NCBI GenBank assembly: GCA_903916665.1
Contig: CAIWXP010000038.1
Location: 1 to 9,225 of the forward strand
DNA: 9,225 nucleotides
Direction of reading: 5' to 3'
DNA from: Candidatus Iainarchaeum sp.
GTDB lineage: Archaea > Iainarchaeota > Iainarchaeia > Iainarchaeales > 0-14-0-20-30-16
Shown here: in pieces, positions 1,655 through 9,225 of the stretch
How positions within the stretch are numbered: the stretch's first letter is position 1
How the letters are laid out: every line of letters begins with the position of its first letter
Notes under the pieces: model-generated
Told to the model about the DNA's origin: nothing
What the model saw: the letters and a program-made list of their open reading frames with translations, nothing else
Databases searched by the model: none
Translations under genes and position numbers: made by a program

Positions 1655-1783
1655 ATGAATATTATAAAACAATATAGAGATGAGAAAAAAATTGAAGACT
1701 TAGAATACAGAAGAGAATTAGAAAATCAAAATTATTTTGAAGAAGAAAATGAATCAGAAGACGATTTCAAAAAATTTGATTAA
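1655..1783 (+). CDS. Hypothetical small acidic protein (42 aa, MNIIKQYRDEKKIEDLEYRRELENQNYFEEENESEDDFKKFD)
   Basis: Not in the supplied ORF track (too short). The ATG at 1655 is preceded by AGTGAT (1646-1651) with a 3-nt spacer, the same SD-like signal and spacing seen at other genes here. It begins 9 nt after the DUF362 stop. Its stop TAA (1781-1783) overlaps the convergent peptidase stop. Low-complexity E/D/K-rich and short, so it could be spurious. Confidence 0.35.
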   Translation: MNIIKQYRDEKKIEDLEYRRELENQNYFEEENESEDDFKKFD

Positions 1784-2307
1784 TCTAAATGTACAATTTT
1801 ATCTTCTTTGTAATAGGGCTTTCTGCCATAGACTATAATACCGTAATCAAAATACTTTTTATGATTATCAGTATCGTGCCATCGTTCTAAAAATTCTTTA
1901 TAGGATAAATAGGTTCTTACAATACTAGAAGGATCATCAAAAAAAATATAATGTGAATTATAACCAATTGCAACAACATAGTGCCCATCAATCCAATCAC
2001 GATTCCAATGAGATAATTTTTTATTGGGATGTGCTTGAATATCAACTATAATCGGAATATCCTTATCAATAAATTTTTTTATGTCGTCAATGTTTAAACC
2101 ACGTGCGTCTGCTTTAAAACCATAATGTTTCGCAACCTTAACTAGATTATCTATTGATGTACCTTCTTTGGGGTTTGTATGTGCATAATGCATTATATGA
2201 TCTTCTCTTGCATCTACACCATAGTAGGCTAAAACACTTTGCAAAGATTTTGCACCACAATCATAATTGTAGGTTTGTCTGGAAACAGGAAACTCTAATA
2301 TTTTCAT
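1780..2307 (-). CDS. Stand-alone papain-like cysteine peptidase, C39 (bacteriocin-processing peptidase-like) family
   Basis: 175-aa ORF. Q11-x5-C17 (RQTYNYDCGAKSLQSVLAYYG) followed by H109 (DGHYVVAIGY) and D125 (FFDDP). This reproduces the Gln/Cys/His/Asp arrangement and spacing of C39 peptidase domains. No signal peptide, TM segment or ABC-transporter fusion. Confidence 0.8.
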   Translation of the reverse strand: MKILEFPVSRQTYNYDCGAKSLQSVLAYYGVDAREDHIMHYAHTNPKEGTSIDNLVKVAKHYGFKADARGLNIDDIKKFIDKDIPIIVDIQAHPNKKLSHWNRDWIDGHYVVAIGYNSHYIFFDDPSSIVRTYLSYKEFLERWHDTDNHKKYFDYGIIVYGRKPYYKEDKIVHLD

Positions 2308-2345: not shown

Positions 2346-2615
2346 TCAAAAAAAGTCTAAATAATACTTTTCATACTCTTTATGATCACCAACAAAATAA
2401 AAATTAACTTGTTTTGTATCTTCAAATATCCTATATAATAATCTATATTGACCAATTTCATCAACAAAAAAATTAGCACCTGATTTCAAATGTCTTTTTG
2501 CAGGATATTCTAGAACTTTTGAGATTTTCTTTACAATACGAATTTTCAATTCACGAGATTGTTTATTAAAATACCTATTCCAATCTTCATCATAAGTAGC
2601 AATATATTCTGACAT
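2346..2615 (-). CDS. Type II toxin-antitoxin system toxin, RelE/ParE superfamily
   Basis: 89-aa ORF located 8 nt downstream of an RHH gene. It shows the typical RelE/ParE layout (IRIVKKISKVLEYP...KRHLKSG....YRLLYRI......VNFYFVGDHKEYEKYY). Confidence 0.75.
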   Translation of the reverse strand: MSEYIATYDEDWNRYFNKQSRELKIRIVKKISKVLEYPAKRHLKSGANFFVDEIGQYRLLYRIFEDTKQVNFYFVGDHKEYEKYYLDFF

Positions 2616-2623
2616 AAAACATA

Positions 2624-2869
2624 TTATTTAAGATATTTTTCGTATTCCCCTAATGCTTCTTTAGAATTTAATATTTTTCTTCTACCTGCTTTTGCTTCTG
2701 TATCTATATAATCTAATTTCTTATTAATTAACTCTATTTCTTTATTTAAATGTTCTTTTCCAAAATAAACAATTGCCATTCTTATTGCCTCAGATTGAGT
2801 ATTAGCATAACCTTCTTCAACCATTAAATCCAAATACTCTTTAGTTACTCCTCTCAATATAACATTCAT
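2624..2869 (-). CDS. Ribbon-helix-helix (CopG/Arc-like) antitoxin
   Basis: 81-aa ORF. N-terminal beta-strand plus two helices (MNVILRGVTKEYLDLMVEEGYANTQSEAIRMAIVYF), then a charged C-terminal tail. It sits directly upstream of the RelE-like gene. AGTGAT lies 5 nt upstream of the ATG. Confidence 0.7.
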   Translation of the reverse strand: MNVILRGVTKEYLDLMVEEGYANTQSEAIRMAIVYFGKEHLNKEIELINKKLDYIDTEAKAGRRKILNSKEALGEYEKYLK

Positions 2870-2977: not shown

Positions 2978-2983
2978 ATAAAG

Positions 2984-3056
2984 GACCTGGACCGGGATTT
3001 GGACCCGGGTCAGAAGATCCACAGTCTTCTATCCTAACCACTAGACCATCCAAGTC
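2984..3056 (-). tRNA. tRNA-His: tRNA-His (anticodon GUG) with encoded G-1, no encoded CCA
   Basis: Cloverleaf folded by hand from the minus strand. G-1 is followed by acceptor ACTTGGA/TCCAGGT (one T-G wobble) and C73 opposite G-1. D arm GTCT-AGTGGTTA-GGAT. Anticodon arm GAAGA-CTGTGGA-TCTTC (anticodon GTG). 4-nt variable loop TGAC. T arm CCGGG-TCCAAAT-CCCGG. The 8-bp acceptor with G-1:C73 is the histidine identity hallmark. Confidence 0.9.
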
Positions 3057-3061
3057 ATACA

Positions 3062-3080
3062 AGCTTTTTCAAAAAAAGCT
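3062..3080 (-). terminator. Hairpin with U7 tract (AGCUUUUU-UUG-AAAAAGCU) overlapping the stop codon of the AbrB-like gene
   Basis: Perfect 8-bp inverted repeat 3062-3069/3073-3080 with a 3-nt loop. The minus strand carries T7, the archaeal oligo-T termination signal. It sits between a TATA-like TTCTAAAAAT (3093-3084) and the tRNA 5' end (3056). Confidence 0.35.
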
Positions 3081-3321
3081 GACATTTTTAGAACATAGAG
3101 TAACATTTGTATCTAAACTAGGTTTTTCAAACTTTAATAATAAAGAATCATTATCCTTAAAAAGCTTTAGAATAACTCTTGAATCATTTTTATTTAAGCC
3201 TAAAGAATCTCTTATCTCTAAAGGTAAAACTAGTCTAGATTTAGAATCCAATGCAATTACATAGGTTACTTGGGTGATGAAGTTGATCCCTTCTGTTTAA
3301 TGTATTTGTATTTTCGCTCAT
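3069..3321 (-). pseudogene. AbrB/MazE/SpoVT-type DNA-binding protein gene with an apparent +1 frame disruption near the N-terminus (or sequencing error)
   Basis: The track ORF (3251-3069) starts at a TTG and begins MDSKSRLVLPLEIRDSLGL, the SpoVT-AbrB swapped-hairpin motif. The same frame stays open upstream to 3296 and encodes TEGINFITQVTYVIAL, which supplies the missing first beta-strand but contains no ATG/GTG/TTG. A strong start (GAGGTGAT-GATGAT-ATG, ATG at 3321) lies in the adjacent frame. That frame encodes only 26 aa before a stop at 3243-3241. Confidence 0.55.
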
Positions 3322-3423: not shown

Positions 3424-4701
3424 TTAACCATTTATTGTTAAATTCCAATAGGTTAATTCCTGGCCTGTTGCTTGATCTTCAGTTTGAGGCCCAAATATTC
3501 TACTATTTTGTCCAATCAATTTATTTCCTGTGGCAAAACCATTAATAGATATTTGCATACTCACCATCATTGTTCCTTTACCTAATTGTTGATCTGGTAA
3601 AGTATCACAATAACTATCTCTTGTTGATGAAGGTATTTTATCATAATTTACATCAACATTAAAAAATGGAGAACCATAATAATGAGTATTTACATCAAAT
3701 CCTAAAAAAAGTTTTTTATTCTCAAGAGTTATTGGAATTTCTCCTGTACCTTCTTGTGTTGTAATTGTACATCCAGAATCAACAACACTTTTATAGGACC
3801 AAAGAAATTTTCCCTCTTCCAAATAATAATTCTGAAGTCCAACAGTCATACCATAGGCCTCATATTGTTTTAAGGTTGTTCCAATAATATCATACTTCTC
3901 AGATAAATAAGAATTTGGTTCAGTAGATTCATATTCATAGTGCATTCTACTACACATAGTTTCTGCAGTCTTTTCTTTTGCTTCTGCTTGGTTTTGCAAA
4001 TCTGTCCAACCTAATAAACCACATAAAATAGCAATTTCTTTTAATCTATTAACACAGGTATATTGATCATTTATCTCATTGGAAACTCTTTTCTTAATTG
4101 TATCCCAAACCTGTTGATTTATTTTTCCTGTTGTATCTAAACCCATTTTTTCAATTACTTCTAAAGCATTCAATAACATTGAATTAGAAGAATTAGGATT
4201 ATTTATTATATCTAATGCCCAATTTAATATTTTTGCTTTTGCTGTTGTATCAATTGCACCTTCATTTGGCAAACCTAAAGATTGTGCTAACCCCAAAGCA
4301 TTTAATAATTGCATAGGTGTTGCATTAGGATCATTTATTACTGCATTTGTTTGTGCTGTTGCTGCATCTGTTACTGCTTGTTGCTGTTGAGAAGTCTCTG
4401 TTCCTTGGGCTTGGGCATTGCCTAAATTATTTAATGCATCCTTTGTTGCTTGTTCAGAACCTTTAGGATTTGTAGGTTCAGGCTGTACTGCATTTGGATC
4501 ACTATTCACATTTATTACTTTAGGATCAACTTCACTAGGACCCCCATTATTTGGACTATTGGCAGTACCATTATTATTAGTTAAATTAGATTGTGTTGTT
4601 CCTAAGTTATTGTTATTAGTTGCATTAGAAACACAACCAGATAATAAAACAACACCAATTAAAAAAATACCCAATATAAAAATAGAAACTTTAGCAAGCA
4701 T
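3424..4701 (-). CDS. Predicted secreted lipoprotein with an N/T/Q/P-rich linker, LLNAL-type repeats and a Cys-containing C-terminal domain; function unknown
   Basis: The long ORF in the track starts at a TTG (4713). The ATG at 4701 is preceded by GGTGAT (4710-4705) with a 3-nt spacer. From that start the protein begins MLAKVSIFILGIFLIGVVLLSGC, a hydrophobic signal plus an L-S-G-C lipobox. About 100 residues of low-complexity N/T/Q/P/A sequence follow, then a roughly 300-aa non-repetitive region with 5 further Cys. Confidence 0.8.
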   Translation of the reverse strand: MLAKVSIFILGIFLIGVVLLSGCVSNATNNNNLGTTQSNLTNNNGTANSPNNGGPSEVDPKVINVNSDPNAVQPEPTNPKGSEQATKDALNNLGNAQAQGTETSQQQQAVTDAATAQTNAVINDPNATPMQLLNALGLAQSLGLPNEGAIDTTAKAKILNWALDIINNPNSSNSMLLNALEVIEKMGLDTTGKINQQVWDTIKKRVSNEINDQYTCVNRLKEIAILCGLLGWTDLQNQAEAKEKTAETMCSRMHYEYESTEPNSYLSEKYDIIGTTLKQYEAYGMTVGLQNYYLEEGKFLWSYKSVVDSGCTITTQEGTGEIPITLENKKLFLGFDVNTHYYGSPFFNVDVNYDKIPSSTRDSYCDTLPDQQLGKGTMMVSMQISINGFATGNKLIGQNSRIFGPQTEDQATGQELTYWNLTING

Positions 4702-4742
4702 AGCATCACCCAAACATCAACTGTCAGAATAATGTAAAAGAA

Positions 4743-4756
4743 GTATAAAAAGCTTT
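4743..4756 (-). promoter_or_regulatory. Putative BRE/TATA promoter of the lipoprotein gene (AAAGCTTTTTATAC)
   Basis: It lies on the minus strand, 2 nt after the fibrillarin stop codon. There are 42 nt from the TATA element to the ATG at 4701. That leaves room for a roughly 20-nt leader carrying the GGTGAT SD. Confidence 0.35.
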
Positions 4757-4758
4757 AC

Positions 4759-5394
4759 TTAAACTTTAACAATAATAAAATAATGATTCTTTTCAAAAGG
4801 ATTCAAATCTAAAACCTTTTCTACTCTTATCTTAGCCTCTTGGAACTTTCTTACGCTTATATCTAAAACTTGCTTAGGTTGCTTTGTTGAATCTATGCTA
4901 TTTGTTTTCAAAGCAATTGCGTGTGTTCCGGGCTTAGCAAAGAGTTTTATCAAATCAATAAATGTTTCAACCATATTCTTTTGTGCAATGTCTTGAAAAA
5001 CAAAATCAAACTTTTGGCCTTTTAATAAATCACAATCTTCCAAATGACCTGCATCAAATAATAAAGGAAAAACATTGTCTCTTTTTTTAGACAATTCTAA
5101 AAAAGGTAACATTGTAAAACTAGAAATATCAACACCAATAATTGATTTAGCTTCCAAATCAGATAAATGAGAAACTGTTGTTCCTGTCGATGAACCTAAA
5201 TATAAAACATCTTTGTTTTGTAAATCTGGCAAAATAAATCCTTTCTTTATTGCTGCAGAAATCTTTGAACTAAAAGGACTCCATTCTCTCAGATAATAAT
5301 TATCCTGTTTAATAATTACTTCATCATACCATTGTAATTTATCAGAACATTTGGTATACAATCTATCTTTCACATAAACTAAATTTTGATTCAT
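4759..5394 (-). CDS. flpA: Fibrillarin-like rRNA/tRNA 2'-O-methyltransferase (box C/D RNP catalytic subunit)
   Basis: Clear archaeal fibrillarin motifs: YREWSPFSSKISAAIKKG, the SAM-binding VLYLGSSTGTTVSHLSD, FQDIAQKNMVE, HAIALKTNSIDSTKQPKQV and NPFEKNHYFIIV. The track start at 5406 overlaps the upstream stop (TAATG). The ATG at 5394 has GGTGAT (5404-5399) with a 4-nt spacer and is my preferred start. Confidence 0.9.
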   Translation of the reverse strand: MNQNLVYVKDRLYTKCSDKLQWYDEVIIKQDNYYLREWSPFSSKISAAIKKGFILPDLQNKDVLYLGSSTGTTVSHLSDLEAKSIIGVDISSFTMLPFLELSKKRDNVFPLLFDAGHLEDCDLLKGQKFDFVFQDIAQKNMVETFIDLIKLFAKPGTHAIALKTNSIDSTKQPKQVLDISVRKFQEAKIRVEKVLDLNPFEKNHYFIIVKV

Positions 5395-5405
5395 AATTAT
5401 CACCA

Positions 5406-6194
5406 TTAAGGAAAGAAAACATTTCCATATAAATCATAAATAACAATAGGATCATGAGGTCTTAAAGTTAACATTGCTTTTGCTGTTTGATAAACTACTT
5501 TTGGATCAGAATTTAAAACCTGAATTCCTAAAACAGGATTGTGTCCAATATCTTTTATTATGCTCCAATCAGTTCTTCCGAATTGATGATTTAGTCTTCT
5601 TCCATCCCATACATTTGGATCTAAATAAACTATACAATTATATTTTCTCCAATCATATTCTGTTCTTAATACACTAAACTGATAAAAAAAATCATACTCT
5701 GCTTTTTTAGGAGATTTTTCTAAAGGCCGAGCAATATCGTATTCTAATTTAGACATTTCTTTACCTTCAAAAGGATTATCATAACGCAATTTAGAAACTG
5801 CATTTGCTATATTTTCTATACGCATTGCTTTTTCTTTTCTAGATTCTAAAGCATCTCTTTTTGTTTGTGCTATTTGTTTTTGTTGTTCTAAGGGTCTAAC
5901 TGATCTTTGAAAATCTAATTTAAATCTTTCAATTTCTCTCACATATGCTTGAGCTTTTTGTGATCCAAATTTCTTTTGAGCACGTTCAAATTCTTTATAT
6001 CTTTTTTTAAAAGTTCCTTCAGTTAAAGTGAAACTGGTATTATAAATTCGACGACTGGGTTTACGATCAAGTAGCATTTTTTCTGTCCCATCACCTAATG
6101 ATTGTCTATATACTCCAACTCTATGACGCATTACATCAAATGCGCCGGGTTTATATCTAAATCTTTTTTGTGGTTCTTTAGGCATAGTATTCAC
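5406..6194 (-). CDS. Hypothetical protein, no family recognised (basic N-terminus, K/R/E/Q-rich predicted coiled coil, roughly 100-aa C-terminal globular region)
   Basis: 259-262-aa ORF, starting at GTG 6194 or ATG 6185. GTG 6194 overlaps the upstream stop by 4 nt (GTGA). Its stop TAA (5408-5406) overlaps the ATG at 5406 and lies inside the fibrillarin SD region. No motif that I can assign. Confidence 0.75.
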   Translation of the reverse strand: MNTMPKEPQKRFRYKPGAFDVMRHRVGVYRQSLGDGTEKMLLDRKPSRRIYNTSFTLTEGTFKKRYKEFERAQKKFGSQKAQAYVREIERFKLDFQRSVRPLEQQKQIAQTKRDALESRKEKAMRIENIANAVSKLRYDNPFEGKEMSKLEYDIARPLEKSPKKAEYDFFYQFSVLRTEYDWRKYNCIVYLDPNVWDGRRLNHQFGRTDWSIIKDIGHNPVLGIQVLNSDPKVVYQTAKAMLTLRPHDPIVIYDLYGNVFFP

Positions 6195-7543
6195 TCTTTA
6201 ACCGGTTTTAAAACTTTCCAATATCCACCCTTATCTGGCCCAACTCTTTCTAATATCCCTTTTTGCTTTAATTTTTGTAATTGTTTTTCAACAGCTCTTG
6301 TCGTAATATTTAATTTAATGGATAATTCTTTTGCAGAAACTGTTGGTTCAAACTCAATTAAATCCAAGATTCTCTCCGAACTTTTCTCCGAACTTTTCTC
6401 CGAACTCTTCTGAACAATCTTTCCCAAATTATTTGATGCTACATCTTGTGATTTTATAGACCGCGGAAATATAGCTCTAAATTCTAAATCTACAATGAGT
6501 TCAAATTTTGCCTTGGGTTCTACTTTCAATATTTTTTTAATGCCAGTACCCCATCTTTCAACAAAATTAACTCTATGAAATATTTCCGCAATTAAATCAT
6601 TACGTCTTTCAGAAACATTTTTTCTTACTATATCTTTAACTGTAAGCCCTTTATAGAGATTTCCTGGATTTCTTATTTCTACTCTATCACTAAAAACAGC
6701 AATATTTACTGAATCATACATTGTATAATCTCTATGACAGAACGCATTAATTATTGCTTCTCTTAATGCACTTTTATTAATTTCAGGCACATCAATCCTT
6801 CGCATACCGTCTAAACGCATACCTATATTTATATGTTGTAAAATATATGTTTCTGCTCTTTTTATCAATTCAAATAGGTCTCCAACAAAATCTTGCATAT
6901 CAATAGACTCTACTGTACTAGGAGTAACAAATGTAGCACACCTTAACTTAGCATTTTGAATAAATTCTTCTGGATTTTTTGCAAAAAGAACAACACAAGC
7001 ATTCAAGGGATTTTCATTTTTTAATAAATTCAATTTAGTTAAAACATTTATTTTGGAGTCATAATTCAAATTAGATAATTTACAAAACTCTTTTAATTTG
7101 CTTTCAGATATATCTTTCAAACCAGCATCCTTACAAATTAAAGTATCCCATTTACTTGAATTAATATCATTAAAATATCTTTGTAATTCCGCAGTAGTCA
7201 TTTGTTTATCGGAATCAGCAACTCTAATATAATATTTACCATAGGCAGAATAAGGTATCTTATCTCCTTGGAAATCTATTTCTATAAATTCTTTTTGGTC
7301 AATTTGTTTTTTTTCTATTTTAGGATAAATCTTTGGTTCAATATAATCTGAAATTGATTTCTCAATATCTCTTAATGTTTTTTCATTTATTGATTGCACA
7401 AATATTTTTCCTGAATTATCAATACCAAAATATAATTTCCCTTTGTTGTGCTTGTTTAAAATAGCAGATATAGAAATAATTCCTTCTTTTAACTGTGTTA
7501 ATGTTTTCTTCAATTCAATAGTCTCAGATTCTTTAAATTGCAT
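6191..7543 (-). CDS. AlbA_2 (Schlafen-like divergent AAA) + HATPase_c_4 + C-terminal winged-helix protein; putative ATP-dependent DNA-binding regulator (often auto-annotated RecG-like)
   Basis: N-terminal FKESETIELKK (the ESxxLEFK signature of AlbA_2). Central REAIINAFCHRDY, VEIRNPGNL and SERRNDLIAEIFHRVNFVERWGTGIKKI (HATPase_c_4). C-terminal wHTH ILDLIEFEPTVSAKELSIKLNITTRAVEKQLQKLKQKGILERVG. The track start at 7573 overlaps nop5 by 17 nt. The ATG at 7543 (M11) has GGTGA (7552-7548) 4 nt upstream and puts the AlbA_2 motif at the N-terminus, so I prefer it. Confidence 0.85.
   Translation of the reverse strand: MQFKESETIELKKTLTQLKEGIISISAILNKHNKGKLYFGIDNSGKIFVQSINEKTLRDIEKSISDYIEPKIYPKIEKKQIDQKEFIEIDFQGDKIPYSAYGKYYIRVADSDKQMTTAELQRYFNDINSSKWDTLICKDAGLKDISESKLKEFCKLSNLNYDSKINVLTKLNLLKNENPLNACVVLFAKNPEEFIQNAKLRCATFVTPSTVESIDMQDFVGDLFELIKRAETYILQHINIGMRLDGMRRIDVPEINKSALREAIINAFCHRDYTMYDSVNIAVFSDRVEIRNPGNLYKGLTVKDIVRKNVSERRNDLIAEIFHRVNFVERWGTGIKKILKVEPKAKFELIVDLEFRAIFPRSIKSQDVASNNLGKIVQKSSEKSSEKSSERILDLIEFEPTVSAKELSIKLNITTRAVEKQLQKLKQKGILERVGPDKGGYWKVLKPVKE
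6373..6408 (-). repeat. In-frame 12-bp tandem repeat x3 (plus strand tctccgaacttt, third copy with one mismatch) encoding (KSSE)3
   Basis: Direct reading gives 6373-6384, 6385-6396 and 6397-6408. It lies in the linker between the HATPase_c_4 region and the C-terminal wHTH of the 450-aa protein (KSSEKSSEKSSER). Confidence 0.9.
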
Positions 7544-7556
7544 ATCTTCACCACAA

Positions 7557-8372
7557 TCATCTTCTTTTATCAAATCTTTTTTTATCTTTTGGATTTGATT
7601 CTTTTAAATTTAAAGCCTGTTTCTTAATTGGTTTTTCTTTCTCTGCTAAAATGCTTTTCTTTTTTTTCTCTATATCTTCCAATAATTCTTTATGCAAAGG
7701 TTTCTTTGCGTAATCATATCTACTTGCTAAAGAAATCTTTTCAGCCATATGTCTTGCTAATTTACCTTTTTGTTTTGGTGTTAATAAAGTCATTAATGGA
7801 TGCAAGTAAAGCAAACCGTACTTAGGAGAAGATTTACCAAACTTTAAATGTTTAAACATTGCTGTTTCTGCACCAAACAATTGTAATGTTGATGCAGGTA
7901 AACTAGATAAACGTTTCAAACTATGAGCTTGATTTAGAAATCGCACAGTTAAAAGAGGTCCTAAAATGTTTGTTAAATTAGGATAAAGATCCTTTGCTTT
8001 CTTTGTTAAAAAATTTTCTATCTTTGATGCATTGGAATAAACATTTAATAATGTTGTTGCTAAACTTTTTATTTGTGTTAAATCATCTTTATGTAAACCC
8101 TGAGATAAATATTTATCTTTTTCTAATTGATTTACTTCACTATCAGAAAGATATTTAACAAACTTAAAACTATCTTTCTTTAATTCATCATACTTTTGAC
8201 TATTATGTAAAGAATACCAATCTTTTAAATATTCAAAAAAAGTATTAAATTGTTTTTGACACAGATCAAAATTTGCCAAACCTCTTAACAAACTTTGTTC
8301 TTCAATATTATTTTCAGAATAATCTTTTATTGCATCTTCTGTTTGTTTAATAAACTCTTTTTTATTTAACAT
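7557..8372 (-). CDS. nop5: Nop5 (Nop56/58) box C/D RNP scaffold homologue, short form lacking the N-terminal fibrillarin-binding domain
   Basis: 271 aa. LKDWYSLH matches the coiled-coil entry motif (RLREWYSLHFPEL in canonical Nop5). The Nop domain is clear: YPNLTNILGPLLTVRFLNQAHSLKRLSSLPASTLQLFGAETAMFKHL..G...PKYGLLYLHP......KQKGKLARHMAEKISLASRYDY. It ends in a Lys-rich tail. GGTGAT lies 5 nt upstream of the ATG at 8372. Only 47 nt separate it from the upstream gene, so there is no room for an N-terminal domain exon. Confidence 0.85.
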   Translation of the reverse strand: MLNKKEFIKQTEDAIKDYSENNIEEQSLLRGLANFDLCQKQFNTFFEYLKDWYSLHNSQKYDELKKDSFKFVKYLSDSEVNQLEKDKYLSQGLHKDDLTQIKSLATTLLNVYSNASKIENFLTKKAKDLYPNLTNILGPLLTVRFLNQAHSLKRLSSLPASTLQLFGAETAMFKHLKFGKSSPKYGLLYLHPLMTLLTPKQKGKLARHMAEKISLASRYDYAKKPLHKELLEDIEKKKKSILAEKEKPIKKQALNLKESNPKDKKRFDKRR

Positions 8373-8419
8373 TAAATATCACCAATTATAAATATAAATC
8401 TAAAATTATTTTGTTAATA

Positions 8420-9225
8420 TTACTCTACAGAATATCTATGATGTTTTTGGTTAAAGGTTTCTTCCTTAGAATATCGTTTCATTATATCAATTAACATTTC
8501 ACCAAATACACTGCTTTGCTTTTCATTATTAAGCTCAGCAAAAACATTTTTTAAAATCTCATTGGTTGCCATTACCTGAGGAACAACAACATATTTTATT
8601 CCTCTTTTATAAAGATCAACAGCTTCTTGAACAAAATAAGCTCTCATAAATACTGGCACTTTAGTCGCATCAACATAGGATAATATAACTTCATTTACAT
8701 CATAGTAAGGTATTGTTATAATTACTGCTCTTGCTTTATTCAAATTTATTTTTTCTAATATTTCTATTGAATCTGCCTGCCCACAAACTGCATAAACATT
8801 CAATTTCATTGCGCTAATAATTGTATCAGGGTCATCATCAACAACAACAATATTTTTTGGTGCTATTAAATTACTTCTTAACAATCCTTCTAATACTCCC
8901 GAACCCATACGACCTAATCCAAATAAAACAACATGATTTTCAAAATCTTTCTCGGAAATATTATCCAATTCCTCTTTTCTTTGTTTGTATATAAATTTAG
9001 AAAAGTATTTGTTTATAGGATGTAATACTTTTTCAAAAAATGTATTCTTTGATAAAACATAGGGCGTTAAAATTAAAGTAACTGCAATAAATAAAATTAT
9101 TGTTGTACTAATTGATTCATTGATAATTGCACCTAAAGTTGCAAATTGAACAATAACCAACGAAAATTCACTTATTTGAAATAAACCAGAAGAAACATAG
9201 AACGATGTTCTTTCATCATAGCCAG
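8420..9225 (-). CDS. Monovalent cation:proton antiporter (CPA2/Kef-like) C-terminal part with RCK/TrkA-N domain; 5' end outside the window
   Basis: The track starts at a TTG (9160), but the frame stays open to the window edge (..GYDERTSFYVSSGLFQISEFSLVIVQFATLG..). This resembles the last TM helices of Na+/H+ exchanger-family proteins. A Rossmann GxGxxG (HVVLFGLGRMGSGVLEGL) follows, typical of TrkA-N/RCK. Confidence 0.75.
   Translation of the reverse strand, partial: GYDERTSFYVSSGLFQISEFSLVIVQFATLGAIINESISTTIILFIAVTLILTPYVLSKNTFFEKVLHPINKYFSKFIYKQRKEELDNISEKDFENHVVLFGLGRMGSGVLEGLLRSNLIAPKNIVVVDDDPDTIISAMKLNVYAVCGQADSIEILEKINLNKARAVIITIPYYDVNEVILSYVDATKVPVFMRAYFVQEAVDLYKRGIKYVVVPQVMATNEILKNVFAELNNEKQSSVFGEMLIDIMKRYSKEETFNQKHHRYSVE

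Follow-up and report, generated by a model that had tools for sequence, protein, structure and literature searches.

A variable gene slot within the nop5-fibrillarin couple of a DPANN archaeal clade

The pairing of nop5 with flpA, the gene for the fibrillarin-like 2'-O-methyltransferase, ranks among the more stable gene couples of archaea, and the contact between the N-terminal domain (NTD) of Nop5 and fibrillarin is regarded as invariant in the box C/D enzyme. What, then, separates the two genes in Candidatus Iainarchaeum sp., a low-G+C DPANN archaeon? The stretch analyzed here is the whole of contig CAIWXP010000038.1 (9,225 nucleotides [nt]; hereafter, the window), in which nop5 and flpA are parted by a gene for an AlbA_2/HATPase_c_4/winged helix-turn-helix (wHTH) protein, called AlbA_2 below, and a gene of an uncharacterized basic protein family that we refer to as ORPH. 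Comparison with relatives indicates that neither rule holds in this clade: varying cargo interrupts the couple in half of the lineages, and the docking domain of Nop5 is missing in all. With moderate confidence, we favor local shuffling within a long-resident, conserved DPANN neighborhood as the explanation for the window, a reading that includes co-transcription of the four genes and roles for ORPH and the AlbA_2 protein. The variable slot inside the couple, the basic family that recurs beside fibrillarin, and the clade-wide Nop5 without an NTD are new; literature searches returned no description of a split nop5/flpA couple in DPANN archaea, of an archaeal Nop5 lacking the NTD, or of the ORPH family.

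Gene order around nop5 and flpA

The open reading frame (ORF) listing places every gene between 9160 and 1780 on the minus strand, and both the listing and the sequence bear out the four-gene order given in a preliminary description of this DNA: nop5, the AlbA_2 gene, an "orphan" (ORPH), and fibrillarin (Table 1). The fibrillarin protein matched Pfam PF01269 (3.6e-44, 151 bits) and NCBIfam NF003276 (177.6 bits versus a cut-off of 113), its S-adenosylmethionine-binding motif VLYLGSSTGTT is readable, and a public gene call (P0045) is identical to it. Two genes and 2,150 nt separate the stop of nop5 (7557) from the start of flpA (5406), and the couple is thus not directly adjacent. The three junctions read as previously described. 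The nop5 TGA (7559-7557) is followed either by a 13-nt gap to the AlbA_2 ATG at 7543 or by a 17-nt overlap with a TTG at 7573; the AlbA_2 TGA and the ORPH GTG share a GTGA overlap, which becomes a 5-nt gap if ORPH begins at the ATG at 6185; and the ORPH TAA runs into the flpA ATG in a TAATG overlap, or is followed by an 11-nt gap to a second ATG at 5394. The AlbA_2 gene likely starts at ATG 7543, because its orthologue in lineage L020 begins at the equivalent MQFKESE. ATG 6185 is likewise the likely ORPH start, given that a public call (P0095) is 259 amino acids (aa) long, a fragment (P0019) opens with MPKEPQ, and MPK is the start of many family members.

Relatives were gathered via fibrillarin, ORPH, and their contigs, which gave ten lineages including the window, flpA identity to the window being 65-83%; among the named relatives, Candidatus Diapherotrites archaeon CG08 (L003) is the closest. 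The arrangement is co-directional and tight in all ten. The two core genes are contiguous in five lineages (L004, L018/19, L007, L020/21, and L024), overlapping by 4 nt in four of these and, in L018/19, separated by a short gap or joined by an overlap, depending on the start chosen. In the other five, the couple is split by five distinct cargo sets (Table 1). ORPH directly follows flpA in L001/L012, L007, and L024, which fall on different branches of the nop5+flpA tree, and precedes flpA in the window only. The AlbA_2 gene adjoins nop5 in three lineages, on the downstream side in the window and L003 and on the upstream side in L020. Across the same genome pairs, identity is 67-72% for the AlbA_2 protein, 57-68% for nop5, and 73-83% for flpA; because the AlbA_2 values fall between those of the core genes, they argue for long vertical residence beside nop5. 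Synteny between the window and L003 extends over both flanks, with a shared TrkA/Na+/H+-exchanger gene upstream and shared lipoprotein-like, AbrB-like, and 81-aa genes downstream. The two differ only in what lies between the AlbA_2 gene and flpA (ORPH versus a metallo-beta-lactamase [MBL]-fold hydrolase) and in a 163-aa gene that follows flpA in L003. The preliminary description had reasoned that relatives with abutting nop5 and flpA would mark the intervening genes as a strain-specific insertion; five lineages do have the abutting pair, but the intervening genes are not strain-specific newcomers.

As in the canonical unit, both window genes are intact and on the same strand with nop5 first, and the pair still abuts in half of the clade. 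In contrast to that unit, the window genes stand 2.15 kb apart, Nop5 is 271 aa long without an NTD, and the slot between the genes varies across the clade. These orders would fit a neighborhood bounded, in the closest relatives, by the Na+/H+-exchanger/TrkA gene upstream and the lipoprotein-like gene downstream, within which a small resident pool (the AlbA_2 gene, an RNase Z-like MBL hydrolase, ORPH, and a VTT-like membrane protein) may swap places around nop5 and flpA. The ancestral order was likely nop5-flpA-ORPH, and the window's nop5-AlbA_2-ORPH-flpA would be a derived state. With the AlbA_2 gene already resident beside nop5, the neighbors flpA and ORPH would then have exchanged places, presumably in that direction, for example through a tandem duplication with differential loss afterward. 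All four genes would most likely be read from the nop5 promoter and be translationally coupled; most genes of this genome are packed in this way. We infer that ORPH is most likely an RNA-binding accessory in the process that fibrillarin serves, whether C/D-guided methylation or rRNA maturation, and that the AlbA_2/wHTH protein is most likely a nucleic-acid-binding regulator.

Other occupants of these slots were recorded along the way. An MBL-fold hydrolase (Lactamase_B_2) fills the nop5/flpA slot in L003 and L005, in copies 40% identical to each other; its best NCBIfam likenesses are the RNase Z, PhnP, and GPMC-MBL models, all under their curated cut-offs. In L022, the slot holds a 624-aa protein with approximately 10 tandem repeats of ~37 aa (…DLPPEYSxLSGTIRGLILGKTYRSVSDVVSTLRxIDSAIxR…) and no Pfam annotation. 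The slot just after flpA is variable too (L003 and L020; in L018 one gene further, past the VTT-like gene); it often encodes small proteins whose N-terminus is very basic (MxxPKKPRE…, KRYRDKK…, MPEKRPERK…) and which, by hidden Markov model (HMM), have no relation to ORPH.

Table 1. Features of the window and of the related lineages, with gene order at the nop5-flpA locus
Feature	Position	Strand	Details
nop5 (aNOP56), window	7557-8372	minus	271 aa; Pfam Nop 4.6e-37; order nop5-AlbA_2-ORPH-flpA
AlbA_2/HATPase_c_4/wHTH gene, window	6191-7543 (ATG) or 6191-7573 (TTG)	minus	450 aa from ATG; assigned by Pfam
ORPH, window	5406-6185 (ATG) or 5406-6194 (GTG)	minus	259 or 262 aa
flpA (fibrillarin-like 2'-O-methyltransferase), window	4759-5394 or 4759-5406 (ATG)	minus	211 or 215 aa
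Intergenic region 5' of nop5, window	8373-8419	minus	47 nt; TATA-like octamers at -27 and -20
Gap 3' of the flpA stop, window	4714-4758	minus	45 nt; T5 run and TTTTTATA element
ORPH 3' end and ORPH/flpA junction, window	5395-5440	minus	ATTTATAT ~40 nt before the flpA ATG
12-nt tandem repeat in the AlbA_2 gene, window	6363-6410	minus	encodes an (SEKS)n linker before the wHTH; repeat search and translation
nop5, L003	2912-3772		order nop5-AlbA_2-MBL-flpA-163 aa
nop5, L012	2475-3284		order nop5-135-aa membrane ORF-flpA-ORPH (L001/L012)
nop5, L022	2274-3059		order nop5-624-aa repeat protein-flpA
nop5, L005	42-776		order nop5-MBL-flpA-VTT-like
nop5, L004	5234-5995		order nop5-flpA-VTT-like
nop5, L018	4213-4995		order nop5-flpA-VTT-like (L018/19)
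nop5, L007	1726-2484		order nop5-flpA-ORPH
nop5, L024	1937-2827		order nop5-flpA-ORPH
nop5, L020	4210-5004		order AlbA_2-nop5-flpA (L020/21)
MBL-fold hydrolase, L003	5117-5995		between nop5 and flpA
MBL-fold hydrolase, L005	781-1581		between nop5 and flpA
Repeat protein, L022	3103-4977		between nop5 and flpA
Post-flpA slot, L003	6637-7128
Post-flpA slot, L020	5650-6402
Slot past the VTT-like gene, L018	6168-6824		one gene further from flpA
TrkA_N ORF, window	8420-9225	minus	in frame to contig end
Lipoprotein-like gene, window	3424-4713	minus
Lipoprotein-like gene, L003	7174-8307
Lipoprotein-like gene, L001	3042-4199
AbrB-like ORF, window	3069-3251
tRNA-His (GTG), window	2983-3055	minus	between the AbrB-like and 81-aa ORFs
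81-aa and RelE/ParE-like ORFs, window	2346-2869	minus	81-aa ORF, 8 nt, then 89-aa ORF
81-aa protein gene, L003	9319-9564
Peptidase C39-like gene, window	1780-2307	minus	175 aa
Peptidase C39-like gene, L018	8878-9405

The ORPH family, gene packing, and transcription signals

The preliminary description had left the 262-aa ORPH gene as an orphan, to be searched with HMMs. That check returned no Pfam or NCBIfam match, and the protein belongs to an uncharacterized archaeal family. A word-indexed search yielded one homologous cluster. An HMM search of 1.84 billion cluster representatives (clusters at 50% identity) yielded 44 matches, 39 of them below 1e-10, with full-length members mostly 235-332 aa long; the window protein matched the family HMM at 4.8e-63. 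Members share the near-invariant C-terminal motifs RFExL, YNCxVFF, WGxI, and, at the extreme C-terminus, LGIQVFDPDPKxLLxxAKxMAKRRPxDPIxIxDLYGxVFYP. The window protein carries the motifs of the C-terminal alpha/beta domain together with the basic N-terminal half and ends IYDLYGNVFFP. AlphaFold2 with 34 sequences gave a predicted local distance difference test score (pLDDT) of 85.9, compared with 38 before, and a predicted template modeling score of 0.74. In the model, a poorly resolved basic N-terminus leads into a long helical hairpin (residues 59-117), which is followed by an alpha/beta domain (residues 122-261). A singleton or spurious ORF is ruled out by the 44 HMM matches and this confident model. 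Searches of PDB sequences, PDB structures (Foldseek), and viral structures (BFVD) gave no match. The family has a median isoelectric point of 10.0 and a net charge in the N-terminal half of mostly +11 to +29, a basic character that suggests nucleic-acid binding. It is also fast-evolving, with 30-42% identity where flpA from the same genomes retains 71-80%. Other members neighbor archaeal housekeeping genes (CCA-adding enzyme, Pelota, ABCE1, Hjc, and TyrRS), and a family-wide ORPH-flpA linkage, also considered, was not found beyond the window's clade.

Within the window, the four genes form a co-directional, tight run in which the sole gaps of at least 45 nt are the 47 nt before nop5 and the 45 nt after flpA. 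Because these only sizeable gaps flank the four genes, a single transcription unit and hence co-transcription are plausible from the sequence layout; the 47-nt region is the probable promoter of the unit, and the 45-nt gap probably contains its end and the promoter of the next gene. A motif scan located a TATA-like octamer at 8392-8399 (-20/-27 from the nop5 ATG). The TATA pattern was ad hoc and was picked after the sequence had been seen, so the scan carries no statistical weight. The preliminary description was imprecise in locating the only TATA/B-recognition-element-like signal after the fibrillarin stop, as another lies 5' of nop5, where the unit would be expected to start, and others inside coding sequence. 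Its argument that the junctions leave no room for a promoter holds with respect to tightness but is weak as an argument, since junctions between unrelated housekeeping genes are equally tight or overlapping throughout this clade, as in the L018 run S6e/eIF2-gamma/PIN/Rpb7/Spt4/S24e/S27. Archaeal promoters may also sit within upstream coding sequence. At the ORPH 3' end, the AT-rich codons for the invariant IYDLYG (5430-5440, minus strand) yield ATTTATAT, ~40 nt before the flpA ATG, and this element within conserved ORPH coding sequence is a possible internal promoter.

Several points weigh against local shuffling among functionally connected genes. Outside the window's clade, ORPH is not beside flpA or nop5 (L010, L015, L017, and L025-L027), and several members of the clade are without ORPH within the DNA retrieved. 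Neighboring genes remain neighbors by default when they swap places, so that the linkage of ORPH and flpA within the window adds little independent evidence of functional coupling. The function proposed for ORPH is drawn from gene neighborhood and charge only. TATA-like octamers lie within coding sequence at -28 of the ORPH ATG and -40 of the flpA ATG, and internal promoters for both genes are possible.

A rival is a neutral account in which gene order drifts and unrelated genes hitch-hike, read through from the nop5 promoter, with the AlbA_2 gene and ORPH unconnected to C/D methylation. We judge it a serious possibility, if a rather unlikely one. It draws on the five cargo sets among ten lineages, two of which (those with a membrane ORF and with a repeat protein) have no obvious RNA link, on the unrelated contexts in which ORPH relatives sit elsewhere, and on tight packing as the norm of the genome. 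Yet ORPH stays by flpA in four lineages across the tree, and the AlbA_2 gene by nop5 in three, over a divergence of 25-45% in the core genes. ORPH is, moreover, strongly basic, like RNA-binding proteins, and the MBL cargo is RNase Z-like, albeit with scores under the curated cut-offs.

Nop5 without its N-terminal domain

The window Nop5 matched Pfam PF01798 at 128 bits (cut-off, 25.4) and NCBIfam aNOP56 at 2.6e-42, under the curated cut-off of the latter model. Its best PDB matches are archaeal Nop5 proteins, and it aligns to those of P. furiosus and S. solfataricus only past the NTD: residue 24 of the query corresponds to residue 137 of the P. furiosus chain, in which the NTD spans residues 11-133. 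The N-terminal fibrillarin-binding domain is thus lacking. The same holds for all ten clade members (240-296 aa), none of which has the ~100-aa globular NTD; in each, the sequence begins with the linker helix immediately ahead of the coiled coil. Given that the start M-x-N/D/S-K-K/S/T-x-F-I/V-x-Q-T-E is conserved in all ten, the short Nop5 is a character of the clade and not a truncated ORF. A more distant Nop5 of 281 aa (P0082) apparently also lacks the NTD.

The eukaryotic Nop-domain protein Prp31 has kept the coiled coil and Nop domain and lost the NTD (PMC11213020). The window Nop5 is NTD-less as well, and PDB chains of Prp31 align to its residues 90-239, but its similarity to archaeal Nop5 (1e-28 to 1e-31) is much greater than that to Prp31 (1e-9). 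Because nop5 of this clade abuts the fibrillarin gene in five of ten lineages, the protein is a Nop5 orthologue instead of a Prp31-like paralogue.

Since the Nop5 NTD is the fibrillarin-recruiting domain (PMC11213020), the question becomes how fibrillarin is recruited without it. The candidate is ORPH, an undescribed basic family whose confidently predicted fold has no structural relatives. One could envision that the clade has rewired its C/D enzyme, with ORPH as a non-homologous tether to the Nop5/L7Ae/guide-RNA scaffold or as a factor that delivers fibrillarin to rRNA independently of Nop5; we consider this improbable. Equally doubtful is the version in which ORPH is an analogous fibrillarin-docking subunit in place of the lost NTD. 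Speculatively, its alpha/beta domain would bind fibrillarin, and either the hairpin or the basic tail would connect with the coiled coil of Nop5 or with guide RNA. Such docking would be in keeping with ten of ten Nop5 proteins beginning just past a globular domain whose role is to recruit fibrillarin (PMC11213020), with ORPH adjoining flpA in four lineages, and with the long helical hairpin and confidently predicted globular domain of unknown fold in ORPH. The likeness to the RuvC/RNase H-like NTD is a proposed functional analogy only, namely an alpha/beta domain on long helices encoded beside the fibrillarin gene, whereas sequence, profile, and Foldseek comparisons find no resemblance and the domain order is reversed, with helices first and the globular part last. 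ORPH and the NTD are not homologues (hhalign probability, 0.35%; Foldseek PDB matches without any Nop5), six of the ten clade lineages showed no ORPH near flpA, and the low identity of ORPH relative to flpA in the same genomes (30-42% versus 71-80%) is unusual for an obligate partner. The related idea that ORPH is a displaced or split Nop5 NTD was rejected on the same hhalign and Foldseek results and on the PDB sequence search. Should the candidate fail, the locus would caution that tight packing in a compact DPANN "housekeeping operon" need not mean shared function.

Composition, AlbA_2 relatives, and neighboring genes

G+C content is flat over the cluster and its flanks (0.20-0.34). The AlbA_2 gene (GC, 0.282; third-position GC [GC3], 0.173) and ORPH (GC, 0.300; GC3, 0.108) compare with ranges of 0.244-0.314 and 0.122-0.201 for the other nine genes, the GC3 of ORPH being slightly under the low edge, and the codon-usage distances of both intervening genes to the remaining genes are among the smallest. 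A repeat search of the window found no direct or inverted repeats bracketing the two genes, and its ORF list includes no integrase or transposase. The sliding GC and codon-usage calculation that the preliminary description had called for thus revealed no compositional break, in agreement with its view that this is not an obviously recent foreign insertion. Composition, codon usage, repeats, and orthologue divergence together led us to reject a foreign insertion.

The AlbA_2 protein has three domains by Pfam, all above gathering scores: SLFN_AlbA_2 (residues 15-126, 4.2e-16), HATPase_c_4 (288-350, 1.4e-20), and HTH_11/HTH_24 (400-442). Full-length bacterial relatives of the same architecture are 26-31% identical and are named "RNA-binding domain-containing" or "ATP-binding" protein by the Prokaryotic Genome Annotation Pipeline; we take proteins of this kind to be COG2865-type predicted regulators. 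The bacterial genes sit in plasmid or restriction-modification-adjacent contexts, whereas here the gene is a vertically inherited neighbor of nop5 in one DPANN clade. PADLOC found only partial domain matches for the AlbA_2 protein, to prokaryotic Argonaute-associated (Schlafen-type) modules and Csa3-like wHTH models, with no full-length match to any system protein, no match for ORPH, and no partner genes. A defense system was rejected, the PADLOC matches being at the domain level only. ORPH had no match in viral contigs (profile patterns) or in phage or plasmid collections, and a close-relative scan of viral contigs found no relative of the AlbA_2 protein.

A selfish or defense-related two-gene cassette inserted into an essential operon, which the preliminary description had entertained, is already largely refuted and now very improbable: AlbA_2/HATPase_c_4 relatives (25-35% identity) are indeed encoded by bacterial plasmids, in some cases with type I restriction-modification genes alongside, and the resemblance to Schlafen-type modules exists at the domain level, but the absence of a composition or codon break, flanking repeats, integrase, and transposase argues against a recent arrival, the AlbA_2 divergence fits vertical inheritance, ORPH has no viral, phage, or plasmid relatives, the viral-contig scan yielded no AlbA_2 relative, and PADLOC returned no full-length match to a system protein. 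Nor do the two genes constitute a pair, because among the lineages compared they occur together in the window only and their distributions are independent.

Within the AlbA_2 gene, the tandem repeat (Table 1) is TCCGAACTTTTC on the plus strand and encodes SSEKSSEKSSEKSSE; the corresponding linker differs in the L003 orthologue.

An Rfam scan of the window matched the tRNA-His gene only and no box C/D small RNA gene, and a simple C/D-box scan matched coding sequence only. Beyond this tRNA gene lie the 81-aa ORF and, 8 nt further, an 89-aa RelE/ParE-like ORF (weak Pfam matches, under cut-offs), and the two ORFs resemble a type II toxin-antitoxin pair. L003 retains the 81-aa protein, and in L020 a PemK-like toxin follows a comparable 81-aa ORF. 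A stand-alone peptidase C39-like protein of 175 aa with no ABC transporter attached is encoded in the window and in L018. Upstream of nop5, the TrkA_N gene is cut by the contig edge, as it corresponds to the C-terminal portion of the L003 gene, a Na+/H+-exchanger/TrkA fusion of 578 aa; in L024, the corresponding gene is split in two. The lipoprotein-like gene lies downstream in three lineages (the window, L003, and L001). Its product has a signal peptide followed by a Cys and an N/T/Q-rich low-complexity region, which accounts for the only G+C bump of the window (0.36, 4200-4650).

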